A stretch of DNA of 64,000 bases. It comes from Oligoflexales bacterium. GTDB lineage: Bacteria > Bdellovibrionota_B > Oligoflexia > Oligoflexales > RGVZ01. The notes under the pieces were generated by a model. That model was not told where the DNA came from and did no database searches. It worked only from the letters and a program-made list of their open reading frames with translations. A program made the translations under genes and the position numbers. The stretch covers positions 512-64,511 of the forward strand of contig CANILH010000005.1 in assembly GCA_947468665.1 (NCBI GenBank), written 5' to 3'. Below are positions 10,005 to 63,345 of this stretch, piece by piece; the first letter of the stretch is position 1; each line of letters starts with the position of its first letter.

Positions 10005-10031
10005 TGATCGACACTTCATGGAAAATCTTGA
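10005..10031 (-). promoter_or_regulatory. Putative sigma-28 (FliA) promoter for the response regulator
   Basis: Minus strand TCAA-N15-GTCGATCA versus consensus TAAA-N15-GCCGATAA. Confidence 0.5.
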
Positions 10032-10146
10032 GGAAAAAGAGCTTCGACTTCAAAGAAATAAGGATTCAGGAGCCAGAACGACCGGCTCTTAAAATAGCAA
10101 TAAATACATATATTTACTTTGTCTCGCCGTTTATTTTCATCCCGAC

Positions 10147-10173
10147 TTTAGTTTAGTCGCAGCCTGCCGATAG
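10147..10173 (+). promoter_or_regulatory. Putative sigma-28 (FliA) promoter for the Hpt gene
   Basis: TTTAGTTT-N11-GCCGATAG versus TAAAGTTT-N11-GCCGATAA. Confidence 0.6.
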
Positions 10174-10185
10174 AGTGCTCTAACC

Positions 10186-10563: not shown

Positions 10564-10580
10564 CCTTTGACCTCAATTCA

Positions 10581-11294
10581 TTATTCAACCAGTTTTTTCT
10601 CAACAGGGCGCAATTTAAAAGGCGCATTAACGCCGCGCGCGCTCCCTTTGTTGGGGTCAGACTCAGTCACGAATAAATTATCCAATCGAGCGTGGCGAAT
10701 CACCTTTTGCAACTCACCCCGAAACGACGACATTCTGACAAAACGCTCCCTCTGGATTCCCTGTCCCGGCTCTTTGATGTCCTTACCGCCTGTGGCGTGG
10801 ATAATATCGGCTGAGTCTCGGTCATGAACCGCCTCAACAATCACGACATGGCCGCGGTAAACGAGCATGTCACCCGGGATGATATGACCCACAGTCGTCC
10901 CGACCTGTCGCAGGTGATATTTTTTTGCAAGGGCGTCAGGCGCAAGATCAAGCATCTGAGATGTCGTTATGTACGGGAAAGCAAGGCCAGCTTTAGTAAA
11001 AACCATCTGCGTAAAATGAGAGCAATCGAGGCTGCAGGAACCGCACGTGGGGCACTCCAAAAAGCGCTGTTTTGGGGCCGGGCGACGATCCTCAAGACAG
11101 CTATTGCACTGATCGCAGGTTTTCGTGTCGCCAACCTTTGCTCCGCCGTAAACGTAAGAAACCTCCAAAGTCTCCAGCATGTCATCACCAGCGGTACGGA
11201 TTTTGGCCTGAAGTGAAGACAATTCCCCGCCAAAGGCCAAACCTGGTGATAAATAAATCAATAAAAACATGATGTTAAAATATCCGCGTAGCAT
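10581..11294 (-). CDS. NlpC/P60 family peptidoglycan hydrolase with Cys-rich insert
   Basis: Signal peptide, YVYGG, LDCSHFTQMVF (catalytic Cys), PGDMLVY.GHVVIV, IIHA. Start is uncertain (11324, 11294 or 11270). Confidence 0.85.
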   Translation of the reverse strand: MLRGYFNIMFLLIYLSPGLAFGGELSSLQAKIRTAGDDMLETLEVSYVYGGAKVGDTKTCDQCNSCLEDRRPAPKQRFLECPTCGSCSLDCSHFTQMVFTKAGLAFPYITTSQMLDLAPDALAKKYHLRQVGTTVGHIIPGDMLVYRGHVVIVEAVHDRDSADIIHATGGKDIKEPGQGIQRERFVRMSSFRGELQKVIRHARLDNLFVTESDPNKGSARGVNAPFKLRPVEKKLVE

Positions 11295-11308
11295 TTTCCG
11301 TCCCCGAC

Positions 11309-11335
11309 TCAAATATATCTTCAAGCTTCCGATAT
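11309..11335 (+). promoter_or_regulatory. Putative sigma-28 promoter for the VTT-lipase gene
   Basis: TCAA-N15-TCCGATAT. Confidence 0.45.
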
Positions 11336-11340
11336 ATTAG

Positions 11341-13002
11341 ATGAAAAATAGCCAATGGACTAGACTATGCAAGAGTGGGTTCTTTGTACCTGCGGGTGCC
11401 GGCACAACCAAGGAGCACGGCTTGTCTGAGCACGATGATAAATCTCAAGCCCCGCCAAATGAGAGTGCCCAGCCCTCAGGGGACAGCTTTGTGCCAGGTA
11501 CGTCTTCGGATAGGCCTGAACCAGTACGTAGTGATTATGAGTCCAATACGGCGTTTCACAAAGCCAATTTCAAGTTTAATTACTTTCGCGCGGCCCTTGC
11601 TGTTGAGATCTCACTAATTATCGCGGCGATCGTTTTCGCATGGACCTTTTGGCATATATGGTGTCCCGATGGCCTTGAGCAGTGTATGGGCAGTTCGAAA
11701 CTCGCTCCTGCTCACTTCCTGCTGCTGTCGTTTGTCAGACCATTCCTGCTGACACCTCACGTCTTCGGCGCTTATCTGGCGGCACGAAGTTTCAGTGAGG
11801 GTGGCGCCATTTTGCTCTCGGCTCTTGCCAGCACACTCTCGACAATTCCAGTTTATGGAATCTTCTACCTGCTAGGAAAGAGTATCGTAATACCTTGGAT
11901 GAGTCGCAATCTACCCTCAACTCTCCGCCTGATCAGAACTCAGGACTACAAGTTGATTTTCGCAGCGCGACTCATTCCTCTGTTCCCGTTTGATCTGATA
12001 AGCTTCCTGGCCGGTGCGTTTAACCTGCGGCCATGGCGGGTTCTGGCGTTTACGTTTCTGGGGATTCTGCCTGAGTCGATCTTCCTGGTTTATATGTCGT
12101 CTCCCAAAGTGACTCTGCTTGGCTGGACGGTAAATGCCATCGGGTTGACCGCCTGTCTCATTTTGGGACCCTTACTCGTTTTCGAGTGGCAGAGCAGGCA
12201 ACGGGGGCGAAGCCTCTGGAACACTATGATCGCGGCTTACAAAGAAATCATGGCCGAGGCCACCATGAATAATCAAATCGTGCGCCGCAATAAAACCATC
12301 GACCCGAACAAAACCCCTGTGCTGCTTCTTTATGGTTTCTTCTCCTCTCAAAGATCCCTGAATGTCATTGAGCGTCAGCTGGTCGCCGCTGGTTTTGATG
12401 TCCTGAGCTTCAACCTGGGGGGTCTTTTTGGGACTTTTTTCACTCAAGGGGTAATGGAGTCTGCCGCTTTCATTGACTACAAGTTAAAGCGGCAGATGGA
12501 TCGTCATGGATTCAAGAAAGTTCACGTGGTCGCCCACTCAAAAGGCACCCTTGTATCGTTCTGGTGGCTCCTCAAACTGGGCGGCAGCAAATACTGCGAC
12601 AAAGTAATCGCCATGGCGCCGCCTTGCAGCGGGAGCTACTTCACCTATCTGGCTCTGGTGACACCACTGGCGTTTTTCTGGCGGGATGTATGGCAGATGC
12701 GTCCGGGCAGCAGCTTCCTGAAATATCTGAAAGACAGCGTCGTTCCACCAAATCTAAAAATTTACTGTATGTACAGCGACGCCGACATGGTAGCCCGCGG
12801 CAAACTAGGCGTATTTACTCCACGCGGGGGCAGTGAGAATGTCACGAAGATCGCCATGAATGATCTAAGTCACTTTGACTTCCTGCTAAGACGGGAACCC
12901 ATCAAAGAGGTCATAAAAATCCTGAAAGACGACGAGGAGACTAGCCGTCTTCTCGACGCTGAGGATGTAACTCCACTAAACCGCATTGGCGGAGACTATT
13001 GA
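11341..13002 (+). CDS. DedA/VTT (SNARE-associated) membrane domain fused to an alpha/beta-hydrolase (lipase/esterase)
   Basis: RLIPLFPFDLISFLAG VTT motif. The C-terminal domain has PVLLLYGF, VVAHSKG nucleophile elbow, YSDAD and SHFDFL. Start is more likely TTG 11422 after an AAGGAG SD. Confidence 0.85.
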   Translation: MKNSQWTRLCKSGFFVPAGAGTTKEHGLSEHDDKSQAPPNESAQPSGDSFVPGTSSDRPEPVRSDYESNTAFHKANFKFNYFRAALAVEISLIIAAIVFAWTFWHIWCPDGLEQCMGSSKLAPAHFLLLSFVRPFLLTPHVFGAYLAARSFSEGGAILLSALASTLSTIPVYGIFYLLGKSIVIPWMSRNLPSTLRLIRTQDYKLIFAARLIPLFPFDLISFLAGAFNLRPWRVLAFTFLGILPESIFLVYMSSPKVTLLGWTVNAIGLTACLILGPLLVFEWQSRQRGRSLWNTMIAAYKEIMAEATMNNQIVRRNKTIDPNKTPVLLLYGFFSSQRSLNVIERQLVAAGFDVLSFNLGGLFGTFFTQGVMESAAFIDYKLKRQMDRHGFKKVHVVAHSKGTLVSFWWLLKLGGSKYCDKVIAMAPPCSGSYFTYLALVTPLAFFWRDVWQMRPGSSFLKYLKDSVVPPNLKIYCMYSDADMVARGKLGVFTPRGGSENVTKIAMNDLSHFDFLLRREPIKEVIKILKDDEETSRLLDAEDVTPLNRIGGDY

Positions 13003-26743: not shown

Positions 26744-26985
26744 ACCAACCCACATCAAAAGTACGCAAACATCAACCACAGCGGTGTGTTAAGGCACGCA
26801 ATTTACCTCGGACTCGATGTTTGTACCACAGAAGTTATTGCCTAATTTAGAATCGGCAGTTTCTTTTATTAAGGCACTTTGACCAAAAATCGGGCCGACC
26901 TTGACAGACCGCTGACCAGAGTGACACGCTGTTCTTAAATACCGTAAAACCCAGGTATCACGAAATGTTAAGAGGAGAATTGACT

Positions 26986-27774
26986 ATGACTTACACAGTA
27001 CGGAACCTTTTTCTAATCAGCTCCATGGCCATATCAAGCATCACTTTCGCTGGCACCTTACCGGGCACGTCAACCGATCTGACTGATGGCCCCATCGTAA
27101 CCCCACCGGGCCATGGTCGACTGACCGTCACCGGCGAAGACGGGGCCGGCCAGACATCAGCACTTGGGATCTGGCGCTGCGAGGCTGATCCAGTCTTCAT
27201 CCTGAAGCAGCAATCCTGCTACGAACTCCAGGGCAACTTTGAGATTAATAAGCAGATAAATTTGCCCGAGGGAATCTATTCCCTTATTTACAATCATACG
27301 ATTGCGCACGCGGTGATCGTTAAGAACGCCCAGGAAACCGCCGTTAATTTGATCCAGATTTCAGTTCCAGCCGATAATCTCACCAGCGGCACAACTGAGT
27401 TTCGGGTTTTCAGGGATTTGACCAGTGATGAACAGATGCGCTCGGAGCTGCTTGCGCAGTGGGCTTCGTATACTGGCGCATGGGAGTCCTGGGCCTGTGG
27501 AAACGTCACCTACCAGGATATCTGCCACGCCATTCACACATCACCAGATGCCATGAAAAATGTAACTCTGAAAAGCGACAGCCAGGGTGACTATGTAGAA
27601 GTCTATATTTACGCCAACGGTCGCCCCCGGTACTGGAAAAACTCGGGACGCAAATGGGTCAATGACAAATCTCTCACCGGAGATTTTATCAGCGTGTTTT
27701 CAGGGATTTACGGAGTGGAGTTCACCGGCGCGAGCGGCGTAAAAACAACCCGCTACGGGATCGTCGCGAACTAA
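26986..27774 (+). CDS. Secreted hypothetical protein
   Basis: AGGAG SD, signal peptide ending TFA, beta-rich mature domain with four Cys. Confidence 0.7.
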   Translation: MTYTVRNLFLISSMAISSITFAGTLPGTSTDLTDGPIVTPPGHGRLTVTGEDGAGQTSALGIWRCEADPVFILKQQSCYELQGNFEINKQINLPEGIYSLIYNHTIAHAVIVKNAQETAVNLIQISVPADNLTSGTTEFRVFRDLTSDEQMRSELLAQWASYTGAWESWACGNVTYQDICHAIHTSPDAMKNVTLKSDSQGDYVEVYIYANGRPRYWKNSGRKWVNDKSLTGDFISVFSGIYGVEFTGASGVKTTRYGIVAN

Positions 27775-27818
27775 GGAGAGGGAAGCGAATAAGTCAAGAC
27801 TCACTTAATCACCTATTT

Positions 27819-28270
27819 CCGTCCCCCTTCCGTGTTCTCCGTCCTTCCGTGCTTCCGTGTAAGTATTTAAACCAGAATTTGAACACGAATTTTTACACGG
27901 AAACACGGAGGGGCGGAGGGCACGGAAAAATTAATTGGATAACACTCCCAATTCCACCTCTCCCCGTCCCCCTTCCGTGTCCTCCGTCCTTCCGTGCTTC
28001 CGTGTAAGTATTTAAACCTGACTTTACACCAGAATTTGAACATGAATTTTTACACGGAAACACGGAGGGGCGGAGGACACGGAAAAATTCAATTAACTAA
28101 ATGCCCCAATCCCACCTCTCCCCGTCCCCCTTCCGTGTCCTCCGTCCTTCCGTGCTTCCGTGTAAGTATTTAAACCCGAATTTACACCAGAATTTGAACA
28201 CGAATTTTTACACGGAAACACGGAGGGGCGGAGGACACGGAAAAATTAATTGGATAACACTCCCAATTCC
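27819..28270. repeat. Three tandem 145-158 bp units, each with a 35-bp imperfect inverted repeat
   Basis: Arms ttccgtgtcctccgtccttccgtgcttccgtgtaa / ttacacggaaacacggaggggcggaggacacggaa at 27828-27927, 27973-28084 and 28131-28242. Confidence 0.95.
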
Positions 28271-28336
28271 ACGCCTCCTCTCCCCTGTCCCCTTCCCTGT
28301 CCCATTTCGTGTTTTCCTTGATGGATTCCAAAAATA

Positions 28337-35129: not shown

Positions 35130-36896
35130 ATGAGCTATCTGATCAAAATATCAGGCCTACTGAAGCCAGATTATCATGTCACGGTCATCATGGCGTTAAC
35201 CGCTATATTAACGACCGCATGTGGAAAAACTCATAAATCCGCGTCAAATAACTCAAGCAGTGGCACGACTGTGGCGAACTCACAATCCCTCGCGGTAAGT
35301 TACCCCGAAGGTATGAGTGTTTCGTCATCCTCGACAACGGCACCTACATCAAGCTCAAATGACCCGACAACTGTCGTCTATGCGTCCGGCGCGTTGTCAA
35401 TACCAGCCACCACTCTCACATCATCACTGACAGCCGCTGATACATACGATCAACAGGCCGTCCCACCCAAGGACCGGATTCTTGACGCGGCCAAACGCCT
35501 GAAAGGCGAGGCCGATGATTGTTTGCCGACTAAAGTCTTCAATCCCCTTCCTCCGAATCCTCCTGGGTGCTATAGCCCCGATGGCGACCTGGTGAGCGTA
35601 AACACAACTTTCACGCCACCTACCCCGTCAGTCCCGAGATTTCCCACCGCCAGTGGCGTCACTCTAAATGGAGAGGCATGTCTCGCGGCGTACTCGCGCG
35701 ATCAGATCGCCCAGGTAGGCGCAATTGTAGATCAGGCGCAAACACTTGTTGAGGGTATGATTTGCGCGGCCTACAAAGCCAACAAATCTCAAAAACTCCC
35801 CAAAACCGGAGAGACTCTGGATCTCGCGGCACATCTGTCCGACATCACCGGGGCGCAAATCGTCCCATCCACTACTGATATGGCATCAGCAACCGGAGCT
35901 CCAACACCCGTAGCTGGCACGGCGCCGCCAAAGGCCAACTTCCGGTTTATGAAAGCCACGATTGAGCGCAAAGACGACACAACCGACCGCGCACAGTTTC
36001 TCTCCCAGATTGTTATGGAAGTGAACGGGATAGTGCGTGAGATCAGACTCATGCACATGCCGTCTCTGACCAGCGGTAACAATGACTATCTAGGACGTCT
36101 CTCAATCCGCACCATACCTGTCCAGAGGCCGGGCATTACTGACAACAATCAAAATTACCTCGACCTGAACTACATGCTGAGTGTTGATACAACAGACGGT
36201 AGCAAACCAAAAACACGCTACCGTCTTCTGCGCGCCATGTTTAACTATGATGCCCTGAAAGCCATGAATCAGGACCCGTTCGCCGGAGTCGGACAGCTGA
36301 ATTTGAACGTAGGCGCTGACTTCTCCGGCACAGAGACGACACCTGGCTATGGACACTTCCCTGGCGACACCGTCAATAGTCTGAACGCGACGATGAGTCG
36401 GGTAAACCAGATAGACTATGAGGGCAACCCGATCACGAGCGAAGGCAAACTCGCGTTCTGGGTGAACCCAGGTGGAAACTACCGCGAACCTGCGCGTGGT
36501 ATGGTTGCCGATAGAAAACGTGAAAGCGCGGACTCCACTAGACTCATCGGCTGCGCGGTGAGCGGCGCGGCACTTGGCGGTGATCTGGGTGGCGCCTACT
36601 CCATCCGCAAGGCCCAAAAGACGTCAACGCTGATGAAGCCAACAGGTTATTATCACCCGGATGGTCAGGACGATAATACAGCTCTCCGTGTCAACCCCCG
36701 TTGCGCGGCCGGTGACTGTAAAATAGCGCCCTACGTCTATAAGCAATGCTACCGCCAAAATGATGCTGGTCTTTATGTGCCAGATAGCAATATCGACACG
36801 GCCAAAAACTATGATGTTATCAACGTGCGCTCGACACCAGGAGTTATTGATGACCGCATGCCTGCGGTCGACGGCAAAATCGGAGCGCCCAAATAA
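35130..36896 (+). CDS. Large lipoprotein of unknown function
   Basis: Lipobox TTAC, S/T-rich linker, Pro-rich segments, paired Cys. Confidence 0.75.
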   Translation: MSYLIKISGLLKPDYHVTVIMALTAILTTACGKTHKSASNNSSSGTTVANSQSLAVSYPEGMSVSSSSTTAPTSSSNDPTTVVYASGALSIPATTLTSSLTAADTYDQQAVPPKDRILDAAKRLKGEADDCLPTKVFNPLPPNPPGCYSPDGDLVSVNTTFTPPTPSVPRFPTASGVTLNGEACLAAYSRDQIAQVGAIVDQAQTLVEGMICAAYKANKSQKLPKTGETLDLAAHLSDITGAQIVPSTTDMASATGAPTPVAGTAPPKANFRFMKATIERKDDTTDRAQFLSQIVMEVNGIVREIRLMHMPSLTSGNNDYLGRLSIRTIPVQRPGITDNNQNYLDLNYMLSVDTTDGSKPKTRYRLLRAMFNYDALKAMNQDPFAGVGQLNLNVGADFSGTETTPGYGHFPGDTVNSLNATMSRVNQIDYEGNPITSEGKLAFWVNPGGNYREPARGMVADRKRESADSTRLIGCAVSGAALGGDLGGAYSIRKAQKTSTLMKPTGYYHPDGQDDNTALRVNPRCAAGDCKIAPYVYKQCYRQNDAGLYVPDSNIDTAKNYDVINVRSTPGVIDDRMPAVDGKIGAPK

Positions 36897-37238: not shown

Positions 37239-39194
37239 ATGAACGATTCACAAACCATCGGCATTCTCAAAGGTCTGGTCATCGACGGCGTCAACAAAGC
37301 CAAGTCTGGCCACCCAGGTGGGGCGATGAGCTCCATGGATTTCGCTTATATTCTCTTCACGGAGTTTTTGAAATTTGATCCAGATGACAGCCTCTGGCTC
37401 GGACGGGACCGTTTCATCCTGAGCGCCGGCCATGAGTCCATGCTGCAATACTCAATGCTGCACATGATGGGCTGGCTTCCGATCGACGAGCTCAAAAAAT
37501 TCCGCCAGCTCCACAGCAAAACTCCCGGCCACCCGGAGAACTTCCACACCAAAGGTGTCGAGTGCACCACGGGCCCACTCGGCCAGGGTGTCGCCATGGC
37601 AGCGGGCTTTGCCATCGCGGCAAAGCATCTTGCGGCGAGTATTGACTCTAAACTATTCGGCCATAAGATCTATTCCCTTATGGGTGACGGCTGTATGCAA
37701 GAAGACGTCACACTCGGTGCGGCGTCTCTCGCTGGTCATTTGAAACTAAGTAACCTCATTTGGTTTTATGACCGCAACCGCCAACAAATCTCAGGCAATA
37801 TCAATCGCGCCACAAGTGACAACGAGGAATTGGTATTTAAAGGCTTCGGCTGGCACGTCGTAACCATCGACGGCCACGATCACACACAAATCCGCAAAGC
37901 CCTCACTGACGCCCAGACTGCCGAGCGTCCCGTGCTCATCATCGGCAACACCATCATGGCCAAAGGCTGCGCCACCCAGGAAGGTAATCACGAGACTCAC
38001 GGCGCGCCGTTGTCAGCTGATGAGCGCACTAAAACAAAACAAAAACTCGGCATCCCGGACGGCGAGGATTTCTATTGTCCAGAAACCGCCGTCAAACATT
38101 TCCAGCGCCGTTTCGGTGATCTCAGAGCTAAAGCCAAAGAATGGAAGTCTACGGTCACAGACCGCCAAAAAGACAACGACTTCAAAACCACCTGGAACAA
38201 ATACTTCGGCAAAGAAGACTGGTCTAAGCTCACGCCAGTGAACTGGCCATCGGGCGGAAGCGTCGCCACCCGCAACGCCTTCGGTGATGTCCTGAAGCAA
38301 TGGGCAACCGACATCCCAAATCTCATGGGCGGGAGTGCTGACCTTGAACCATCAAACATGACCGGCCCGTTTGCCAAGGCCGTTGGAGACTTCCAGGCGG
38401 CGAGCCCCAAGGGCCGCAATCTGGCCTTCGGTGTCCGCGAGTTCCCGATGTCAGCGATTGCCAACGGCATGGCTCTGCACGGCGGCGTGATTCCTTTTGA
38501 CGCGACGTTCTTAAGCTTCGCTGATTATTCGCGCCCGGCACTTCGCCTCGGCGCGATCCAAAAAATCCGCGTGATTCACGAATTCACCCACGATAGTTTT
38601 TATCTAGGTGAGGATGGCCCGACACACCAACCTGTCGAGCATGTGATGAGTCTCAGGCTCATTCCAGATTTTTATCTGATGCGGCCAGCCGATGCCCGCG
38701 AGACAAGATTCATGATGGAGGAGGCCCTCAAAATCTCACAGCCATCGGCCCTCTGTCTTTCACGCCAAAAACTCCCGACCCTGGAATTCACGCCCGCGCA
38801 GGAGGCCGACTGCCGCAAAGGGGCCTGGATTGTGCAGGATCAGGCAAGTCCTGACCTCATCATATTCGCCACCGGCTCAGAGGTTTCGCTCGCGATGGCG
38901 GCGGCAAAAGACCTGCCGAAATTCAAAACCAAAATTGTCAGCATCCCTTGCTGGGAACTAATGCTTAAGCAGGACAAGTCCTTCCAGGACCGGATGATCT
39001 CACCTGACTGCAAGCGCCGGGTCAGCATCGAGGCCGGCAGCACCCTGGGCTGGCAGAAGTTCACGGGCATGAATGGCCTCAATATCGGCCTGGACACTTT
39101 TGGCGCGAGTGCTCCCATGGAGCAGCTGGTGGAAGAGTATGGCTTCACACCGGCGAAAGTGGTAAGCCGTATCTCGTCGCACTTTAAAGATTGA
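37239..39194 (+). CDS. tkt: Transketolase
   Basis: [48 protein letters not shown]. Confidence 0.97.
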   Translation: MNDSQTIGILKGLVIDGVNKAKSGHPGGAMSSMDFAYILFTEFLKFDPDDSLWLGRDRFILSAGHESMLQYSMLHMMGWLPIDELKKFRQLHSKTPGHPENFHTKGVECTTGPLGQGVAMAAGFAIAAKHLAASIDSKLFGHKIYSLMGDGCMQEDVTLGAASLAGHLKLSNLIWFYDRNRQQISGNINRATSDNEELVFKGFGWHVVTIDGHDHTQIRKALTDAQTAERPVLIIGNTIMAKGCATQEGNHETHGAPLSADERTKTKQKLGIPDGEDFYCPETAVKHFQRRFGDLRAKAKEWKSTVTDRQKDNDFKTTWNKYFGKEDWSKLTPVNWPSGGSVATRNAFGDVLKQWATDIPNLMGGSADLEPSNMTGPFAKAVGDFQAASPKGRNLAFGVREFPMSAIANGMALHGGVIPFDATFLSFADYSRPALRLGAIQKIRVIHEFTHDSFYLGEDGPTHQPVEHVMSLRLIPDFYLMRPADARETRFMMEEALKISQPSALCLSRQKLPTLEFTPAQEADCRKGAWIVQDQASPDLIIFATGSEVSLAMAAAKDLPKFKTKIVSIPCWELMLKQDKSFQDRMISPDCKRRVSIEAGSTLGWQKFTGMNGLNIGLDTFGASAPMEQLVEEYGFTPAKVVSRISSHFKD

Positions 39195-39236
39195 TACCAA
39201 AGATTGATAGCAAGGACTGAGATCAGAGACCAACCC

Positions 39237-39491
39237 ATGACCGAGCCGGGCAAACATCAAGACCGGGAAGCCCTTGCGGCAGCCATCAAAGGCCTACCGC
39301 TCGATGAGCACCTGCGCCAGAAATCCACGTCCAACACACGTGACCCGGCCGACGAGTTCGCCGCCTGGCACGAAAGGTTTCGCCATGAGCTCGCCAGCGA
39401 GTTTGGCGAGGTACCCGATGATGACGATGAGGCCTCCATCGACGAATACATCACGGCTATGCGTAAGCAGTTTCGTCTCAGACTACGCTGA
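39237..39491 (+). CDS. Small acidic hypothetical protein
   Basis: 84-aa ORF after tkt with host-like codon usage, acidic patch VPDDDDE and a basic C-terminus. Confidence 0.55.
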   Translation: MTEPGKHQDREALAAAIKGLPLDEHLRQKSTSNTRDPADEFAAWHERFRHELASEFGEVPDDDDEASIDEYITAMRKQFRLRLR

Positions 39492-39495
39492 AGTC

Positions 39496-39554
39496 TCCGT
39501 CATCCTGACCGAAGGGAAGGACCTGTCCGTCATCCTGACCGAAGGGAAGGACCT
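39496..39554 (+). repeat. Two tandem 29-bp CGTC-type REP-like elements
   Basis: tccgtcatcctgaccgaagggaaggacct x2, period 30. Confidence 0.85.
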
Positions 39555-39627
39555 CGAAGCCCCCCGAAGAACCCCAAATAAAATATTCCGACCAAAATCT
39601 GCATAACTATCTTAAATTACTATATTA

Positions 39628-39656
39628 TTGACTTTTTATATAAATTATATTACTCT
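39628..39656 (+). promoter_or_regulatory. Putative sigma-70 promoter in an AT-rich tract
   Basis: TTGACT-N17-TACTCT upstream of the AAA ATPase. Confidence 0.45.
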
Positions 39657-39694
39657 AATAAAAAGCATTCGATGTCGATTTTTGGAGTGATTTA

Positions 39695-40876
39695 ATGCCA
39701 CATTCCCGCCACAGGTACCTTAAGAGCATCCTGCTGGAGAAGCTGAAATTCTCACCTGTCGTGGCTATCCAAGGCGCTCGCCAGACAGGAAAAAGCTTCA
39801 CCGCCCGCGAGCTTCTCAAAACAGACTGCCCCAAATCCGCTTATGTGACTTTGGATCGACCAAGTGATCGCGAGCTCGCTAAAAACGCGCCGGAGTCTTT
39901 TCTCGAAAATTACGCGGACCATGTTCCCATCATTATCGACGAGGCTCAAAAAGTACCGGAGCTATTTGACGCTGTTAAATTCATCGTCGACAAGGACAAG
40001 AGGCCCGGTCAGTTTTTACTTCTCGGCTCGACCGAATTCTCAAAAAAGACACTCATTCGTGAATCTCTGACTGGCCGCATTTCGACCGCTAAAATGATGC
40101 CCTTTACCTGCGCCGAGGCGCTTCAGCTTCCCCTCAAAAAATCAGACTCCTGCTTCAGCGTACTGCCTTTGCCAAGATGCGAGCGCAAAGACCTAATGCG
40201 TCATCTTCAGCGGGGTGGAATGCCTGGAATTTTCAGTATTCACTCCGAGCGGGAGCGGATCGGCAAGCTCAAGGAATGGCTAGAGTTAACTGTTTACCGT
40301 GACCTGACCCTGATCCCGAAGGTGAAAATTGACACCGATCTCGCCATGGCGATTCTTAGGGAAATCGCGCGTTTGGACGAACCAACCGCTGGAAATATCG
40401 CGAAAAAATTAAAACGCGACCTGCGCCGGATTCAGACTCATTTGAATTGCCTAGAACTTCTTTTTGTCATTCACAAGCTATCACCCATTGACGAGAGCAG
40501 CGGCAAGCCGATTTACTTCTTACTCGATGTCGCTTTCGCGCATTATTTCGAGGCGGACTTCGCGCGATGTCTCCATACATGGCTCGTACAGGAGACTTTA
40601 GCCAACAAAGAATGGTCCGAAAACATTCGAGAGACCATCGGATATTATCGCAGCGCGAAGGGCGCCATGACGCACCTCATCATAAAACACTCCCGCACGC
40701 GATGGGACGCGGTAAAAATAATCGCCAACGAGAAATTCAGCGCCAAGGATCTCTGGAGCCTGACCAGGCTACGGGAAAAACTCCCAGCTGAAGTCACGCT
40801 GAGCCTCCTCGCGCTGACCTCAACCTCGGCAGACCTCGAAGGTGTCAAATGCAAACCTTGGGAATCTATTGTCTAG
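39695..40876 (+). CDS. AAA_14 + DUF4143 ATP-binding protein
   Basis: GARQTGKS Walker A, IIIDEAQKVP Walker B, FLLLGS, ESLTGR, RGGMPG. Confidence 0.9.
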   Translation: MPHSRHRYLKSILLEKLKFSPVVAIQGARQTGKSFTARELLKTDCPKSAYVTLDRPSDRELAKNAPESFLENYADHVPIIIDEAQKVPELFDAVKFIVDKDKRPGQFLLLGSTEFSKKTLIRESLTGRISTAKMMPFTCAEALQLPLKKSDSCFSVLPLPRCERKDLMRHLQRGGMPGIFSIHSERERIGKLKEWLELTVYRDLTLIPKVKIDTDLAMAILREIARLDEPTAGNIAKKLKRDLRRIQTHLNCLELLFVIHKLSPIDESSGKPIYFLLDVAFAHYFEADFARCLHTWLVQETLANKEWSENIRETIGYYRSAKGAMTHLIIKHSRTRWDAVKIIANEKFSAKDLWSLTRLREKLPAEVTLSLLALTSTSADLEGVKCKPWESIV

Positions 40877-40894
40877 CCATTCACTAACAGCTCG

Positions 40895-42004
40895 CTCCGT
40901 GACGCCGCTCGCCAACGGAAACTACGTCGTGGCGAGTCCGAACTGGAGTAACGGCGGCACTGCCGCAAACGCAATGGGAGCCGTCACCTTCAGAAAAGGC
41001 GACGGAACTAGCGCCAACGGCGTCGTGTCGGCCGCCAACAGCCTCGTCGGCTCCAACGCGGGAGACAAGGTGGGCTTCTACGGCATCAAGGCTCTTTCGA
41101 AGGGAACTCCCGGCACGAACGGAAACTACGTGGTGCCGAGTCCGAACTGGAAAAACGGGTCCTTCGCGACGGCCGGAGCCGTCACCTGCGGCTCAGGAAC
41201 GTCCGGCGTGTCGGGAACCATGTCGTCCTCAAACAGCCTCGTCGGCTCCTCGGCGGGAGACCTGGTCGGAAGCCTCAACGTCTACGATCCTAACTATACG
41301 GTATCCTCGCTTGTATTCGACCCAAGGTTCAACTCCATCACGGAGCTCGCCAACGAAAACTACGTCGTGTACGCCAGCTCCTTCTTAGACCCAGCCTTAG
41401 GAGTCGGCCCAGGATCCGGCGCCGTGACGTTCAGAAAAGGAGACTGCTCGAACGTCGACGGAGTCGTCTCGTCCGCCAACAGCCTCATGGGCCACCTGGA
41501 CTCAACTACGACCCCGGGCGTGACGGCCCTCACGGGCGGCAACTACGTCGTTCTAGAGCCGGGCTACAGCGACGGGGTCCATTACGTCGGCGCGGCAATT
41601 TTCATGGACGGAACCAGCGGGCGTACGTCCACCTGGTCCTCCGACGGAAACTCGAACGTAATATCGTCCTCAAACAGCCTCGTCGGTAATAGCGACAACG
41701 ACTTCGGCGCCGCGTCGGTCACCGCCCTCTCGAACGGCAACTACGTCGTGGCGTCTCCTAGCTATAACGAAGGGGGTCAGACCCTGGGAATGGCCACATG
41801 GGGATCTGGCACCTCCGGCGTCTCTGGAAACGTGCAACGTCCAACAGTCTGACCGGGACAGCGTCGATGCCTATCGTCGGAATCGACGTCAACGGGAACG
41901 GATTCATCAGGGCGTTGTCCAACGGCAATTACTCCACCTCCGCCAAAGACCCGTTCGCGTTCATCGGCGACGGCTCGCTCATGAGCGCTGGGACGCTGCC
42001 TTAA
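40895..42004 (+). pseudogene. Fragment of an adhesin/filamentous-haemagglutinin-like repeat protein (DUF5650-like repeats), frameshifted
   Basis: Repeated L.NGNYVV.SP.W...GAVT...G.VS..NSLVG units. No signal peptide or credible start. Frameshift near 41835 where repeats continue in another frame (ATSNSLTG...ALSNGNY). Confidence 0.75.
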
Positions 42005-42008
42005 TTAA

Positions 42009-42126
42009 GCGTGATTCACGAGTTCACCCACGATAGTTTTTATCTAGGTGAGGATGGCCCGACACACCAGCCTGTTGAGCACGTAATGAGTCTATGGCTC
42101 ATTACGGATTTTTATCTGATGCGGCC
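42009..42126 (+). repeat. Diverged direct-repeat copy of tkt 38569-38686
   Basis: 118 bp with 9 mismatches counted by eye. Encodes [28 protein letters not shown]. Confidence 0.95.
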
Positions 42127-42230
42127 GGCAATGACCTATAGCGGTTTTAAACATGCGGTGTTAACATTTTGAAGAGATCTCGTAACACGATAGTATCTTA
42201 TTGAAAACCCGCACAAACATTGGGTCGAAA

Positions 42231-42659
42231 ATGGCAGCTGGCAGCAATAGCTTATCAAAAAAGGACCTTTTAGACATCGTAGCTACCGTTCAAGCATGTC
42301 TGCCGTTAGCTCAGGGTGTATATATCTATGGCTCCATGGCTCGCGGCGAAGGCCGGTCCGACAGCGATGTAGATATCGCGGTCGTGCAAATCAATCCGCT
42401 TGAACCGGAGCAGGCTTTGCAACTACGCAGTCAACTCGGTGTGCGCCTTGGTCGAGACATTGACGTTTTAGATCTTCGACGAGCATCAACGGAGATCGCG
42501 TTTCAAGTTGTAGGAGAAGGGCAATGTATTTGGGGAGCGGAGGATGAAAGCGTCGCACTTTATGAAAATAGCATTATGTCGATGTATGCCAATCTTCAAA
42601 ACGAGCGCAGGGAAATTATAGAAGACATTGTTAAACGCGGGAGTGTCTATGGCAAGTGA
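42231..42659 (+). CDS. mntA: MNT (MntA-like) adenylyltransferase antitoxin, type VII TA
   Basis: YGSMARG...DSDVDIAV (GSX10DXD), IDVLDL. Overlaps the HEPN gene. Confidence 0.88.
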   Translation: MAAGSNSLSKKDLLDIVATVQACLPLAQGVYIYGSMARGEGRSDSDVDIAVVQINPLEPEQALQLRSQLGVRLGRDIDVLDLRRASTEIAFQVVGEGQCIWGAEDESVALYENSIMSMYANLQNERREIIEDIVKRGSVYGK

Positions 42660-43062
42660 CCCGATCCTGTTAAGGAAGTCACAAATAATTGAACGATGCG
42701 TTCAAAGAATTACCGAAGAGATGGGTGATGCTTCTGGCATCGAATCCCTCAGTCAGACCAAGCAGGATTCCGTCCTTCTGAACCTTGAGCGAGCTTGCCA
42801 AGCTAGTATCGATGCGGCAATGCGGATAGTACGGCTCAAAAAACTAGGACTACCGGCGGAGTCCCGAGAAGCTTTCAAACTCCTTCTTCAGGGGCATTTC
42901 ATCGATGAGCAGCTTTATAAGCGCATGATCAGCATGGTCGGGTTTCGAAATACCGCAGTCCACGACTATCAGGGTCTTAATCTAAAAATAATCGACGGTA
43001 TCGTTCGAAGTCATTTGACGGATCTGATTTCGTTTGCGCGTGCGGCCATTTTGCTGGCATAG
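42649..43062 (+). CDS. hepT: HEPN (HepT/DUF86) RNase toxin
   Basis: NLERACQASID, GFRNTAVHDY (RX4HXY). Confidence 0.9.
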   Translation: MASDPILLRKSQIIERCVQRITEEMGDASGIESLSQTKQDSVLLNLERACQASIDAAMRIVRLKKLGLPAESREAFKLLLQGHFIDEQLYKRMISMVGFRNTAVHDYQGLNLKIIDGIVRSHLTDLISFARAAILLA

Positions 43063-43100
43063 ATTATGGGTGCCCCACCTGATCCAAAACCACCCCCTAG

Positions 43101-43190
43101 AATTAAGGGGACACCTATATGGACCAGCTCTTTTGAGTCAACCACAATTTGAAACCTTTGAAATATTTCGCGACTAATTAAGGGGACACC
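43101..43190 (+). repeat. 15-bp direct repeat aattaaggggacacc x2, with an opposed gggtgcccc at ~43068
   Basis: Exact copies at 43101-43115 and 43176-43190. Confidence 0.7.
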
Positions 43191-43382
43191 CGACTGGTTT
43201 GTGAATTATTTGGCCAGCATCTCGCCTTAACAGACTGCCCAAAGACTTATGAATAGCCGGTCTCACAGCTCCGGCGTTGGAGTCACTGAGTGACGCTGAA
43301 CAGACACTTTGAGCGGCGATTCCCGGGTAAAAAAGCATCGTAGCGTATTAAAGAATTCTTTCCGGAATTCACCAATGGCAAG

Positions 43383-44579
43383 TCATCCATTTACAAGGGC
43401 CAAAGCGGGGATAATGCTGGAACGTGGGGACAGATGCGCGAAATTTTCGCCCAAGGTCGCGTATATAATTTTCGCTTTGGGATAGGATTTCAAAAAACTC
43501 TGAGCGGCACCGACAGCCTGCGGACCTGGATAATCCTCCAAAATGGGAAGAATACCCAGTTCTCCCGCAGCGAATTTAAAGCAAATAGGAACATTCACGC
43601 CAGCGCGGGTCCGATACTGAAACAGCTCCGCGTTTAACTCTGGGCGATAGTGTGTCTGACACCTCAAGTTAGCGTAAAGAAAACGGGTCAGGTCAAACAG
43701 AGGATCCGTCCGATTACCAATAAGAAATGTCGCCTCCCCTTGATCTTCCATGACATACGCGGGTTTTTTGGCTGAACCCTCACATGGAATCATGCGTATT
43801 AAAAATAGCGCCTCAAAGGCCCGCATAATTTTCACAATTGTTGGTCGCGAAATTCTCGTCGCCCTTGACGCGTCATTCCATTCAAATGGCTCATGCTGAT
43901 GCATCGCGACGTACGTCAAAAGACCCCTTAGAGACTGAAATGAAAGTGAGGTATTCATCAACAGACGCAAGTCTCTTTCGAGAATAGTCTCCAACTGCGT
44001 CGCGATTTTTTGATTAAATAGTGATTTCTCACGCAGCGCGAATAACCCGGGCAGACCACCGCCGCGAAGATACCTCTCGACTACTTTATCGCTGATGGCG
44101 GCTTTTTTGCGCGGTGACCATTTTTGCCATGATTTTGACAATTGAATCAAAGAATCCGGAAGAGCCTCCTGCATAGATTCCGATAGATCCATTGGTAAAA
44201 GCTCAAAATAAATGACACGACCAGTTAATGACTCCTGTATCGCCTTGCGACTGGAAAAACGAACTGATCCCGTTAGAATAAACTGCCCCGGCCGGGGATT
44301 TCGGCGCACTTGCTCTTTAAGGGCTGGAAACAATTCCGGCAAGAGCTGGCTTTCGTCCAGCACCGTTGGGTACTTGTCGATTGACTCCAAAAACCCAGTG
44401 GGGTCATTTAGAACTAAATCCCGTGTAACCCGCAAATCAAGACTATAGTAAGACTTCGATATATATGAGCTCAGGGTGGTTTTGCCCACCTGACGATGAC
44501 CCAACAAGGCCACTAAAGGGCTGAACTTCAACCCTTTTTGCAATTGCGCCAATAAATGTCTCTGTCGGAAATGGGGCAT
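43383..44579 (-). CDS. AAA_14 + DUF4143 ATP-binding protein (second paralogue)
   Basis: GHRQVGKT, VLDESQ, FILTGS, ESLTGR, GGGLPG. Confidence 0.9.
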   Translation of the reverse strand: MPHFRQRHLLAQLQKGLKFSPLVALLGHRQVGKTTLSSYISKSYYSLDLRVTRDLVLNDPTGFLESIDKYPTVLDESQLLPELFPALKEQVRRNPRPGQFILTGSVRFSSRKAIQESLTGRVIYFELLPMDLSESMQEALPDSLIQLSKSWQKWSPRKKAAISDKVVERYLRGGGLPGLFALREKSLFNQKIATQLETILERDLRLLMNTSLSFQSLRGLLTYVAMHQHEPFEWNDASRATRISRPTIVKIMRAFEALFLIRMIPCEGSAKKPAYVMEDQGEATFLIGNRTDPLFDLTRFLYANLRCQTHYRPELNAELFQYRTRAGVNVPICFKFAAGELGILPILEDYPGPQAVGAAQSFLKSYPKAKIIYATLGENFAHLSPRSSIIPALALVNG

Positions 44580-44621
44580 AGATGGAGCTTACATCTGGTC
44601 GGTAAAAATGTAAAGGCCCAA

Positions 44622-45905
44622 TTACATTTTTACATAGGTCGCGGGAGTTCGTGAAGACGGCGAAGTAAAAGCCACTAGCCTTGTGTCGCGACCACCGTGA
44701 GAAAAATGGCATGTGTGGCATGTAAATGATTTTAATTTTGTGAGCAAGGCCCGCCACGAGTCCTCGTCGGGACAAATGACATAGCCTGAAATATTATTGG
44801 ATTTAGATAACCGCGCGAGCGCAAGACCCAGGCGCTCATAGATGGAGACGCTGCCGGTTTGTTTCGCGAGGCGAAGGCCATAGGGCGGATTGAGTGGCAG
44901 AAATAATTCGAACCCGGTAGCGGCAAGAGTGTCGGGACTCGCCAGAAAATCATTTAATGTCATACGGACATCAATATCCACGCCGATACTTTCTTTAAAC
45001 GACGTTACCTGCGAGCTCAGCGCGTCAAATATTTCTGGCGTGTTATCACCAAACACTATTTTGGGCTTGCCCGCGCCCCTTGCTGCCAGAAGGCGCTTGC
45101 GAATGGAGGACATGGTTGCCTCGGGATGAAAGGAGAAGTCTTCGCAAGCGTAATGATCTCTGGTGAGAGCCGGAGTAATGTTGAGCACCCGGCAGACTGC
45201 TTCAAAACCAGTGGTTCCTGTTCCGGCAAATGGCGCCGCAACAGTTACCTCACCGCACGCGATTTTGTTCTTTAGGTCGCCGCCAATCTGTTTGGCACTC
45301 CAGAGGAAGCAAGCCGACGCGTGATGCTCGGGCAGCGGCGCGGTGGCACCACCCACGCGGGCTTTGTAGCCACGTTTATACAGAGGCTCACCCGCGAGGC
45401 TGACCAAGATTCTTGTCCGGTTTTTGCCGCTGTCGATTCTAACACGGTGACTTTTTGACTCCGCTGCCTCTTCGTTTTCATTCTCACCAGCACCAAAACC
45501 CCAAGTCGCGACCGCGATCTCTCGGATGTCTTTAGCGGTGCCGACCACGGGATGACTGACCATTGCCGAGACCTTTGTGTCCGCCGCCACGCCACCCTTA
45601 AATAATTCCCCTACTCCTGACGCCTCAAAAAATCCCTTCCAGTCACCCCGTGATGAGACGCGGCCACTGTGAATCACCCACTCCACATCGTGAGCGGTGG
45701 TGAGTCTTGCCACCAGCTCAAGGGCCTGGCGGTAGTCGCAGTCAGAGACCACCACGATGCCGTCTTCGATGACAGCAGCGGGCTTAAATTTATATTTTTG
45801 GGTTGGGGCGTCCAGCACGGCAGACACGTCTTGTAACGTCAGATCGACCCAACCCGGGGCGGGGCGGACAAGAAAACGCTGGGGCTTGGCGAGATAAGAG
45901 GACAT
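44622..45905 (-). CDS. RlmL-like (THUMP/UPF0020) RNA methyltransferase
   Basis: SLAGEPLYKRGY, APLPEH, PFAGTGT SAM-binding motif, NPPYG. Confidence 0.8.
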   Translation of the reverse strand: MSSYLAKPQRFLVRPAPGWVDLTLQDVSAVLDAPTQKYKFKPAAVIEDGIVVVSDCDYRQALELVARLTTAHDVEWVIHSGRVSSRGDWKGFFEASGVGELFKGGVAADTKVSAMVSHPVVGTAKDIREIAVATWGFGAGENENEEAAESKSHRVRIDSGKNRTRILVSLAGEPLYKRGYKARVGGATAPLPEHHASACFLWSAKQIGGDLKNKIACGEVTVAAPFAGTGTTGFEAVCRVLNITPALTRDHYACEDFSFHPEATMSSIRKRLLAARGAGKPKIVFGDNTPEIFDALSSQVTSFKESIGVDIDVRMTLNDFLASPDTLAATGFELFLPLNPPYGLRLAKQTGSVSIYERLGLALARLSKSNNISGYVICPDEDSWRALLTKLKSFTCHTCHFSHGGRDTRLVAFTSPSSRTPATYVKM

Positions 45906-63268: not shown

Positions 63269-63345
63269 GAGATGGTTCGCTTCGCTCACCATGACGGATG
63301 CTCACCATGACGGATGCTCACCATGACGGATGCTCACCATGACGG
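63269..63345 (-). repeat. CGTC-type REP-like element plus four tandem 16-bp partial copies
   Basis: gagatggttcgcttcgctcaccatgacgg, then (gctcaccatgacggat) x4 from 63284. The last copy is partial. Confidence 0.85.

Follow-up and report, generated by a model that had tools for sequence, protein, structure and literature searches.

A 122-nt piece of the transketolase gene (tkt), which lies a few kilobases downstream of the intact gene in an uncultured freshwater Oligoflexales-type bacterium, is best read as the dead relic of a second tkt allele that had long been functional in a sister lineage. We see an even chance that this relic is the scar of one-sided homologous recombination combined with illegitimate recombination, at a hotspot without mobile-element genes. 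Gene turnover at such recombinase-free hotspots is generally ascribed to host recombination in the neighbouring core genes, and direct footprints of the process have rarely been pointed out. If this reading is right, the relic records the past entry of sister-lineage DNA, including part of tkt, into a slot beside tkt, and a small defence and toxin–antitoxin cluster can be assembled from fragments without mobile-element genes. Current views would not be overturned; the locus would be a tidy example of a process rather than a new kind of element. Throughout, the window refers to the whole 64,000-nt stretch of DNA that was analysed, and tkt codons are numbered from the TTG at 37191.

Features of the tkt locus in the window
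Feature	Coordinates	Strand	Description
tkt, intact transketolase	37239..39194	+	651 aa from ATG at 37239
Resident repeat copy	38569..38690	+	tkt codons 461–500; self-BLASTN, repeat search
Small ORF	39237..39491	+	84 aa from ATG at 39237; conserved neighbour of tkt
Tandem duplication	39496..39554	+	two 30-nt units; TRF: 2.0 copies, 100% identity
ATPase 1, AAA_14	39695..40876	+	Pfam AAA_14 E 2.2e-26; PADLOC candidate defence gene PDC-S01
DUF5650-repeat pseudogene fragment	40842..42004	+	five DUF5650 repeats, E 2.5e-63
tkt relic	42009..42130	+	122 nt homologous to codons 461–500; flanks on both sides unrelated to tkt
Terminator-like element	42082..42116	+	11-bp stem, 3-nt loop, then GATTTTTATC; terminator scan
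MntA	42231..42659	+	nucleotidyltransferase antitoxin, type VII TA; NF047752 91.8 bits vs cut-off 60; Pfam Polbeta
HepT	42649..43062	+	HEPN RNase toxin; NF047751 125.4 bits vs cut-off 60; Pfam HepT-like
ATPase 2, AAA_14 / PDC-S01	43383..44579	-	sub-threshold DUF4143 match
RlmK/L-like (rRNA-methyltransferase-like) gene	44622..45905	-	right-hand limit of slot; weak UPF0020 and PRK11783 matches

The resident tkt stretch and its downstream copy

The resident stretch and the relic are identical at 111 of 122 bases, and their similarity ends abruptly at both edges. Specifically, self-BLASTN aligns 118 nt (38569–38686 with 42009–42126) at 92.4% identity (E 4.9e-42), and a repeat search on the window returned 121 nt at 92%. 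Within the 118 nt there are nine mismatches (38582, 38630, 38636, 38642, 38645, 38654, 38655, 38664 and 38666), seven at third codon positions and two at first, in agreement with the first-pass annotation of this DNA; its remark that the next two codons differ only synonymously is likewise borne out, by third-position differences at 38687 and 38690. The in-frame match thus comprises 40 codons (38571–38690) with nine synonymous and two nonsynonymous differences. The latter place a Trp and a Thr in the relic where an Arg and a Pro are invariant in 16 of 16 relatives. With respect to mutation type, the differences are mixed (four A>G, three C>A and one each of C>T, T>C, G>A and A>T) and not confined to adenines, and no reverse-transcriptase domain was found in the scanned ORFs, on which grounds a diversity-generating retroelement was rejected.

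The excess of synonymous differences bears most directly on the history of the copy. Between relic and resident, dS is 0.47 and dN is 0.022 (omega 0.046). In simulations, the probability of two or fewer amino-acid changes was 0–0.0008 when both copies evolved neutrally, 0.0006–0.006 under a local duplication with a decaying copy and a resident under selection, and 0.69–0.82 when both copies were under selection. When the codons of the hairpin described below were left out, all five remaining differences were synonymous (P 0.003–0.012 under the decaying-copy null). The synonymous excess thus rejects a decayed local duplication and indicates that most of the copy's divergence took place within a functional tkt, that of a sister lineage, and the original proposal that the bias reflects divergence within a functional tkt survives even the fairer, decaying-copy null. 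The relic matches the resident at 109 of 120 nt (90.8%), compared with at most 102 of 120 (85%) for any of the 16 relatives; because copy and resident are mutually nearest, a sister lineage is the probable donor. The changes at the two invariant residues are as expected for decay after function had been lost.

The differences are unevenly distributed: the first 59 nt carry a single one and the final 61 nt the other 10. This hints at later gene conversion, although the permutation P is only 0.065 to 0.11. A perfect 47-nt match between the copies lies at 38583–38629. In an alignment-wide comparison of 17 tkt genes, the resident copy was the second most conserved at the nucleotide level of 628 windows of 40 codons, which upholds its initial description as the most conserved stretch of tkt. 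The relic coincides almost exactly with this most nucleotide-conserved part of the gene, and random breakpoints leave the choice of stretch unexplained. A TBLASTN search with the whole tkt protein found no further tkt piece in the 64 kb (next matches at E of at least 2.7), and the relic is absent as a predicted protein from the searched collection.

A variable slot between conserved neighbours

The resident tkt is an intact gene. Its longest ORF opens with the TTG and encodes 667 aa, and the protein exceeds the TIGR00232 cut-off (684 bits vs 682), carries three Pfam transketolase domains and is 76–85% identical to tkt of ten related loci (L001–L009 and L021); the exact 651-aa form occurs on 12 contigs. 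Directly 3′ of tkt, the small ORF is shared by 9 of the 36 fetched loci (L001–L009; 60–72% identity by TBLASTN). It has no Pfam, NCBIfam or PADLOC match, and its exact protein occurs on 19 contigs. In L001, L004, L007 and L009, tkt and the small ORF are followed by a homologue of the methyltransferase-like gene (50–60% identity), and the backbone there runs in the order tkt, small ORF, slot, methyltransferase, ndk and tex. The small ORF and the tkt 3′ end are backbone and not cargo. Consequently, the small ORF does not belong to the island in which the first-pass annotation had counted it, nor do the two copies bracket that island: the tkt 3′ end and small ORF are backbone in nine relatives, and the right-hand copy sits in the middle of the slot. 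A suggested comparison of tkt trees 5′ and 3′ of 38690 gave congruent halves, with the window grouping with L004 and L009 in both, and hence no positive sign of a mosaic resident tkt; the comparison has little power overall, and none against a donor only about 9% diverged. Indirect evidence of a second allele comes from the relic itself.

The variable slot itself spans about 39495–44620 (about 5.1 kb), between the small ORF and the methyltransferase-like gene, and the insertion relative to L004 and L009 has these same limits. On the left, similarity to relatives ends near the tandem duplication, and BLASTN alignments stop by 39453. What had been taken for REP-like repeats is this one local duplication of a 30-nt unit, which recurs nowhere else in the window even when three mismatches are allowed. 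The relic lies in mid-slot, between the broken DUF5650 fragment and MntA–HepT, and the slot reaches 2.5 kb beyond it. Compared across 36 loci, and between species only, the slot holds yjdM in L004 and L009, genes for DUF1275, SulP and carbonic anhydrase proteins in L001, three unknown ORFs in L007, and two PDC-S01-type ATPases, MntA–HepT and the DUF5650 fragment in the window. Syntenic flanking genes, and different accessory genes at one spot in different genomes, are two features of a transfer hotspot without mobile-element genes, and the locus shows both in this between-species comparison. The slot is also a compositional mosaic, in which GC3 runs from 0.59 to 0.74–0.80 and then to 0.46–0.50, against 0.56–0.66 in the backbone.

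The genes within the slot follow this pattern. ATPase 1 has backbone-like GC3 (0.59), matches PDC-S01 with E 1.4e-58 over profile positions 10–395 of 422, and occurs as an exact protein on 15 contigs. ATPase 2 (GC3 0.49; exact protein on 12 contigs) is oppositely oriented and 31–32% identical to ATPase 1. An AAA-DUF4143 gene had been reported between the copies; the AAA ATPase assignment stands (AAA_14, PDC-S01), and DUF4143 pertains only to the second ATPase, where the match is below threshold. Validation is still pending for most PDC-type candidates (PMC12988326). Similarly, the supposed adhesin fragment is indeed a fragment, more precisely one of truncated and frameshifted DUF5650 repeats (GC3 0.74–0.80). 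It lacks its N-terminal part, is frameshifted between 41768 and 41852, continues in a second frame (41768–42004) and is cut off at 42004; its homologues, among the 120 best listed, are surface-type proteins of 709–1974 aa with 38–50% identity. Beyond the relic, the MNT-HEPN pair seen at first pass is confirmed, as MntA (142 aa, GC3 0.46, exact protein on 19 contigs) and HepT (137 aa, GC3 0.50, exact protein on 16 contigs) are both above NCBIfam cut-offs and are encoded by adjacent genes with an 11-nt overlap. The absence of a nearby recombinase was confirmed as well, in that no integrase or transposase family was matched by any of 55 window ORFs (11 + 44; at least 110 aa, plus the locus ORFs). 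No tRNA gene was predicted in the window by ARAGORN, and Rfam gave no match.

A terminator-like hairpin in the relic

The last part of the relic contains a hairpin followed by a run of T, which on sequence criteria corresponds to the structure of a predicted intrinsic (Rho-independent) terminator. The element lies 115 nt upstream of the MntA ATG. Five of its 11 stem pairs are G-C, and a 2-nt gap separates the stem from the T run, which has five T within 8 nt. The predicted minimum free energy (MFE) is −14.7 kcal/mol in the relic vs −8.8 in the resident, whose weaker hairpin (38645–38663) also precedes a run of T; the values for the 16 relatives lie between −0.9 and −7.2. All four differences located in the stem aid pairing (T-A to C-G on both sides, T×C to T-A, and G·U to A-U), and the T×C to T-A change is also the Pro to Thr substitution. 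An MFE this low or lower had a probability of 0.003–0.014 under three substitution nulls and of 0.00015 among random synonymous recodings. The 56-nt stretch around the hairpin (42070–42125) has a z of −2.2, and 4 of 200 shuffled versions reach an equally stable fold. The hairpin was noticed post hoc, in a consensus scan that returned 11 sites against an average of 7.1 in shuffled sequence.

Since 4 of the 11 differences strengthen the hairpin, part of the pattern may reflect selection on structure rather than history. It is conceivable, if rather doubtful, that the relic was kept because its hairpin and T run act as an intrinsic terminator, with several differences selected for the stem, a possibility that would add to the recombination scar rather than replace it. 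Such an element would shield the MntA–HepT operon from read-through out of ATPase 1 and the DUF5650 fragment. The 11-bp stem and T run on the + strand upstream of MntA, the lowest MFE being that of the relic, the uniformly strengthening stem differences, and the low probabilities under substitution nulls and shuffles are consistent with this idea. Against it stand the post hoc nature of the scan with its background of sites, the modest G-C content of the stem and the displaced T run, and the fact that about 40 nt suffice for a terminator, which leaves the 73 nt kept upstream unexplained. If the hairpin is a working terminator, the locus would offer a modest case of coding sequence put to regulatory use.

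Proposed origin of the relic and known parallels

Both edges of the relic are abrupt non-homologous joints. The left joint, to the DUF5650 fragment, is clearly non-homologous; at the right joint an ATG occurs in each sequence within one base of the break, weak evidence for microhomology. As the DUF5650 neighbour is likewise truncated and frameshifted, several illegitimate joints appear to have formed at this spot. The relic is moreover internal to tkt (codons 461–500 of 667) and does not reach the 3′ end. A second tkt piece within 10 kb was present in none of the 36 fetched tkt loci, among them those of the 10 closest relatives; in this species-level comparison no intermediate form, such as a longer displaced tkt 3′ end, was seen either, and there was no plasmid or phage match.

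These joints are consistent with a scar of one-sided homologous and illegitimate recombination. We propose that host recombination may have brought in DNA of a relative, one end being joined through homology in either tkt or the methyltransferase gene and the other end illegitimately. Such homology-facilitated illegitimate recombination would have left a partial extra copy of tkt. A second event of this kind, or a deletion, would then have brought in or left MntA–HepT and ATPase 2 and trimmed the copy to 122 nt.

Alternatively, a replacement tkt 3′ end might have arrived together with cargo on circular or linear DNA that inserted at the conserved motif in Campbell fashion, as e14 does in icd, the two copies being the ends of a swappable island. 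This model, which is essentially that of the first-pass annotation, would explain the foreign-allele signature and needs no recombinase. It would also account for the relic being the most conserved stretch, where crossover of diverged alleles is most feasible, as the 47-nt perfect match illustrates. Nonetheless, we regard it as unlikely. Since a Campbell-type insertion should leave the displaced 3′ end whole, a relic that is not continued to the tkt stop requires an additional deletion or another event. The slot runs 2.5 kb past the relic, and the arrangement is found in none of 36 other tkt loci. The left edge joins unrelated DNA of the DUF5650 fragment and offers no homologous crossover point. 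Finally, the coordinates dictate that a crossover between the copies would truncate tkt at codon 500, so that the cell would be unlikely to tolerate excision of a circle. The notion of excisable, swappable cargo anchored at tkt is improbable for these reasons, and the relic is not an attachment site, there being no harmless excision through it.

The selection signature would be the same if the relic derived from a second tkt of the same genome, an old paralogue that was long functional and then destroyed by indels, and the several gene fragments at this spot would fit such erosion. The lack of a second tkt piece within 10 kb in all 36 loci, and of any other tkt remnant within the 64-kb window, makes this quite unlikely. 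A local duplication of the resident segment (tandem or templated repair) with subsequent decay of the copy would account for the mutual closeness of copy and resident, for the single difference in the first 59 nt and for two amino-acid changes that look like decay. We consider it very unlikely, given the simulated rarity of so few amino-acid changes, both over the full 40 codons and with the hairpin codons left out, and a dS of 0.47 that needs a long time, with the resident alone supplying about half of the changes.

It is highly improbable that the relic is an assembly chimera, in which a piece from a co-occurring strain was stitched in during metagenome assembly. In favour of a chimera, the close relatives are without exception metagenome-assembled genomes, related genomes share no tkt stretch better than the one found in the relic, and the exact slot proteins are often on short contigs in other assemblies. 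However, a join via a shared stretch gives one tkt-flanked copy, not 122 nt with two non-tkt flanks. Furthermore, the exact ORF ending 4 nt before the relic is found on 17 contigs and exact MntA, 101 nt after it, on 19. The exact ATPase 1, MntA and HepT proteins each occur on contigs of up to 73,720 nt, and for ATPase 2 and the methyltransferase the longest contig has only 64,708 nt; the 73,720-nt value on both sides of the relic fits, indirectly, a second and different contig carrying both. Equally remote is the prospect of the relic as a portable homology anchor, a copy of 120 highly conserved nt from a universal housekeeping gene, that travels with low-GC3 MntA–HepT and PDC-S01 cargo, lets host RecA capture this cargo beside tkt in diverged hosts and insulates it by using its hairpin as a terminator: its conservation rank, foreign-allele signature, adjacent foreign cargo and the lack of recombinases would suit a cassette that moves by borrowed conserved host sequence, but no such piece occurs in 36 other tkt loci, there is no plasmid or phage match, and an essential gene would normally be disrupted by a crossover within it.

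Among known systems, the e14 prophage is excised from icd by site-specific recombination, and its icdC is a C-terminal fragment such that excision rebuilds icd (PMC13626634, citing Hill et al. 1989). As in that account, a housekeeping gene is intact here, with a partial second copy a few kilobases downstream that differs mainly by conservative or synonymous changes. Unlike e14, the present locus has no recombinase, its relic is internal, and crossover between the copies truncates tkt. A site-specific island or prophage with att repeats was rejected on these grounds: the scanned ORFs contain no integrase, the repeats fail to mark insertion ends (the left lies inside backbone tkt, the right in mid-slot), and the displaced copy stops at codon 500, so that excision would not restore the gene. 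The PDC-S01 and MntA–HepT families match the cargo genes, with PDC-S01 a candidate only, and do not describe the repeat.

The slot resembles more closely the hotspots without mobile-element genes whose diversity is described as arising through recombination in the core genes on either side (Oliveira et al. 2017, PMC5635113). Shared features are a slot between core genes, species-specific content (here from a species-level comparison of 36 loci), no integrase or transposase, and defence-type cargo. A clean double crossover of the type described there is scarless, but the present slot encloses an internal piece of its core-gene neighbour.

[quoted passage not shown] 2017, PMC5361080). The relic differs from these, as they are presented there, in being a single internal 40-codon piece short of the gene 3′ end, with no array, and in that the MntA–HepT/ATPase module has no functional link to tkt. 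What the two share is a different-allele partial copy of a conserved upstream gene placed before a downstream module, with one non-homologous joint and no integrase.

Divergence and origin of the tkt relic

The window contains an intact, resident transketolase gene (tkt; codons numbered from the TTG at 37191, 667 aa) and, farther downstream, a 122-nt tkt-like copy, which we term the relic, that matches positions 38569-38690 of the resident (codons 461-500). The direct repeat reported in the first-pass annotation was borne out: self-BLASTN aligned 38569-38686 with 42009-42126 (118 nt, 92.4% identity, E 4.9e-42), a repeat search extended the match to 121 nt, and in the tkt frame 40 codons correspond (38571-38690 and 42011-42130). 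These codons hold 11 differences, nine synonymous at third positions and two at first positions, and the amino-acid-changing differences, read from resident to relic, are AGG to TGG (R to W) and CCA to ACG (P to T). Homology to tkt is lost abruptly at both the left and the right edge, and TBLASTN with the entire tkt protein found no further tkt pieces in the 64 kb (other matches had E >= 2.7). The differences are unevenly spread, with one in the first 59 nt versus 10 in the last 61; a mosaic relic was considered and set aside, as the max-chi-square permutation P, corrected for breakpoint choice, was not significant (0.065 for all sites, 0.11 for third positions). As a predicted protein, the relic ORF was absent from the searched protein collection by exact look-up, and a word-based protein search returned eight short tkt-like ORFs of 55-73% identity that did not include it. 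BLASTN of 41850-43250 against plasmid and phage collections gave no matches.

With respect to selection, a Nei-Gojobori comparison of relic and resident (25.8 synonymous and 94.2 non-synonymous sites) gave dS 0.47, dN 0.022 and an omega of 0.046. The earlier null of decay following duplication was too simple, since the resident copy would itself go on changing synonymously, and we therefore simulated three models, each conditioned on 11 differences, with the probability of at most two amino-acid changes as the statistic. This probability was 0-0.0008 when both copies were neutral, 0.0006-0.006 when a locally duplicated copy evolved neutrally beside a resident under selection, and 0.69-0.82 when both copies were selected. 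When the nine codons overlapping a hairpin in the relic were left out, all five remaining differences were synonymous (P 0.003-0.012 under the local-duplication model). The argument that the synonymous bias reflects divergence inside a functional tkt thus holds, both over the whole copy and outside the hairpin. The R and the P that the relic replaces with W and T do not vary in any of the 16 aligned relatives, and these two changes are as would be expected for decay once function had been lost.

The closest sequence to the relic is the resident itself (109/120 nt); the best relative of the relic, locus L007, reaches 100/120, and the best match of the resident among relatives is 102/120. At positions 38582, 38630 and 38642 the relic shares the state of eight to nine of 10 close relatives, so changes occurred in the resident lineage too. 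Taken together, these comparisons give good support to divergence of the copy while it belonged to a functional tkt in a sister lineage. A long-lived second tkt copy in the same lineage would leave an identical selection signature, but no second tkt piece was found within 10 kb of tkt in any of 36 loci.

The retained segment is also unusual in its position. Among 40-codon windows across 17 tkt genes, it ranks 2 of 628 for nucleotide conservation, and the top window begins one codon later. Random breakpoints would rarely yield such a rank, which suggests that homology or function shaped the segment that was kept.

The variable slot downstream of tkt

Searching species-representative genomes with the tkt protein yielded 36 loci; the ten nearest (L001-L009 and L021; 76-85% identity) come from freshwater metagenome-assembled genomes mostly labelled Oligoflexales or Bdellovibrio. 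TBLASTN with window ORFs showed that L004 and L009 keep the order of the 33797-35032 gene, tkt, a small ORF, a short gap, the methyltransferase gene, ndk, tex and a phosphorylase gene, and that L001 and L007 keep the tkt-to-methyltransferase part with larger gaps. The small ORF (84 aa, ATG at 39237) lies 3′ of tkt in nine of the 36 loci (L001-L009), and so belongs to the backbone, not to the cargo. In separate trees built from the tkt segments 5′ and 3′ of the repeat, the window groups with L004 and L009 each time; this comparison, made with species-level relatives, would not reveal an exchange with a donor that differs by about 9%. The tkt proteins of other strains are 88-99% identical to that of the window.

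Several further observations concern tkt and its surroundings. A 588-aa ORF at 35130-36896, between the 33797 gene and tkt, has a homologue only in L007 and no Pfam, NCBIfam or PADLOC matches; the 33797 gene and tkt are adjacent in L004 and L009, so a second variable slot exists upstream of tkt. A 13-nt unit, AAAGATTGATACC, is repeated 2.2 times at 39186-39213, spanning the tkt stop codon and the beginning of the longest frame of the small ORF. On a 2,156-nt contig, a 595-aa tkt variant (P0035), 92% identical to the window tkt, is no longer similar beyond about residue 558 and has an unrelated end, a pattern that resembles a frameshift or a junction within the 3′ part of another strain's tkt. 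In L013 (Bdellovibrionota), tkt at 10001-11960 was matched in two overlapping segments (residues 17-523 and 506-665), suggestive of a frameshift or a split gene.

Coordinates of features at the tkt locus (window positions)
Feature	Position	Strand	Basis
Resident tkt	37239-39194	plus	
ATPase 1	39695-40876		PDC-S01, E 1.4e-58 (PADLOC)
tkt relic	42009-42130		
Terminator-like element in relic	42082-42116	plus	terminator scan
ATPase 2	43383-44579	minus	PDC-S01, E 1.6e-53 (PADLOC)
Methyltransferase gene	44622-45905	minus	TBLASTN synteny in L004, L009, L001 and L007

L004 and L009 have about 0.45-0.5 kb between the small ORF and the methyltransferase gene, L007 has 1.9 kb, L001 3.2 kb and the window 5.1 kb. 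The content of this interval differs as well: yjdM in L004 and L009; DUF1275, a SulP transporter and carbonic anhydrase in L001; three ORFs without family in L007; and, in the window, two AAA_14 ATPases matching the PADLOC candidate defence family PDC-S01, a DUF5650 fragment, the relic and the type VII antitoxin/toxin pair MntA-HepT. Because the gap genes differ by genome, the true slot is placed at about 39495-44620, with the relic in its middle. The slot of the window showed no trace of the genes that occupy it in relatives (yjdM, DUF1275, SulP, carbonic anhydrase, the L007 ORFs), the sole SulP match being the window's own gene at 19-21 kb.

The two ATPases share just 31-32% identity, and MntA and HepT both score above NCBIfam cut-offs. 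The DUF5650 ORF carries five repeats, lacks its N-terminal part, has a frameshift somewhere between 41768 and 41852 and terminates at 42004, four bases 5′ of the relic. The best 120 of 3784 DUF5650 homologues are surface-type proteins of 709-1974 aa, and no near-identical parent gene was among them, the top match of the 3784 being 50% identical. Backbone genes have GC3 values of 0.56-0.66, and ATPase 1 falls within this range at 0.59; values are higher in the DUF5650 fragment (0.74-0.80) and lower in MntA, HepT and ATPase 2 (0.46-0.50). By composition, the slot is thus a patchwork drawn from three or more sources.

In terms of mobility functions, the reported absence of a recombinase was confirmed, with no integrase or transposase family matched among the 55 window ORFs scanned. 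An integration site linked to a tRNA, tmRNA or ncRNA was likewise rejected (no tRNA genes, no Rfam matches), as was a diversity-generating retroelement (no reverse transcriptase; mismatches not adenine-specific). The inverted repeat CCTTAATTAAG... (41999-42014 and 43168-43183; 16 nt, 81% complementary), examined as possible cassette ends, is partly self-palindromic and one of 27 comparable pairs found over 9.4 kb, and was taken as chance. Directly 3′ of the HepT stop, AATTAAGGGGACACC occurs in two exact 15-nt copies 75 nt apart (43101 and 43176), and a terminator-like minus-strand hairpin (43113-43091) overlaps the first; allowing three mismatches, AATTAAGGGGACACC gave three matches, not above chance (16 of 100 shuffles reach three).

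Elsewhere in the window, an intergenic tandem array at 27810-28302 (158-nt period, 2.6 copies, 90% identity), with inner 35-nt inverted segments and CTTCCGTG micro-repeats, sits between the 26965-27774 ORF and a prmA-like gene and has no Rfam matches. Close to the window end, at 63284-63345, the 16-nt unit GCTCACCATGACGGAT forms a perfect tandem repeat of 3.9 copies.

A putative terminator within the relic

The terminator-like element of the relic, a post hoc find, comprises an 11-bp stem and a 3-nt loop followed by GATTTTTATC, and lies 115 nt 5′ of the MntA ATG. Its resident counterpart is a weaker 8-bp hairpin; the 35-nt stretch folds with a minimum free energy of -14.7 kcal/mol in the relic, compared with -8.8 for the resident sequence and a range of -0.9 to -7.2 among 16 relatives. 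The stem holds four of the 11 differences, and all four strengthen it: T-A becomes C-G (one change per side), the P to T substitution turns a T x C mismatch into T-A, and G.U becomes A-U. The loop carries a further two differences, one of them the R to W substitution. The probability of reaching -14.7 was 0.003-0.014 under three substitution nulls, and for the 56-nt stretch 42070-42125, which contains the hairpin, z was -2.2, with 4 of 200 shuffles folding equally well. These values suggest that the relic may have been reused as a putative terminator before the toxin-antitoxin operon.

Integrity and history of the locus

An unlikely alternative, a chimeric assembly joined through a shared stretch, would be expected to bring tkt flanks, but the relic has none. 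Exact proteins encoded left of the relic recur on 15 (ATPase 1), 19 (small ORF) and 12 (tkt) contigs, that of the 68-aa ORF ending 4 nt 5′ of the relic on 17, and those to its right on 19 (MntA), 16 (HepT), 12 (ATPase 2) and 14 (methyltransferase). For each of tkt, the small ORF, ATPase 1, MntA and HepT, the largest contig with the exact protein is 73,720 nt, and for ATPase 2 and the methyltransferase it is 64,708 nt. As indirect evidence, these occurrences fit the presence of genes from both sides of the relic on at least one contig other than the source of the window. Exact look-up of the DUF5650 ORF (from its first ATG) and of two backbone proteins found none in the collection.

Parts of the earlier interpretation were not supported. 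Campbell-type entry with a replacement tkt 3′ end should have left the displaced 3′ end complete, whereas only codons 461-500 remain. Nor does an island end at the two copies: the left edge of the relic is joined to the DUF5650 fragment, and variable DNA runs 2.5 kb past it. Recombination between the copies would join tkt codon 500 to the DNA 5′ of MntA, destroying tkt. The feature is a gene relic lying inside a variable slot that lacks mobile-element genes; it does not mark the edge of a swappable island.

Its structure fits host recombination with one homologous side and one illegitimate joint. In a tkt-anchored event, the old tkt from codon 461 onward would have come to lie behind incoming DNA that comprised a new 3′ part of tkt, the small ORF, ATPase 1 and the DUF5650 fragment. 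MntA-HepT and ATPase 2 would have been introduced by another event, anchored in the methyltransferase gene, or left in place by a deletion, and either step would have removed the old copy beyond codon 500. One-sided homologous plus illegitimate recombination is proposed in PMC5361080 as the source of displaced partial gene copies at Rhs/CDI/T6SS loci. The slot itself agrees with the general picture of hotspots without mobile-element genes, for which PMC5635113 describes turnover through recombination in flanking core genes. On this reading the locus adds one more case of a known kind of process, and the conservation rank of the relic and its strengthened hairpin are two minor peculiarities.
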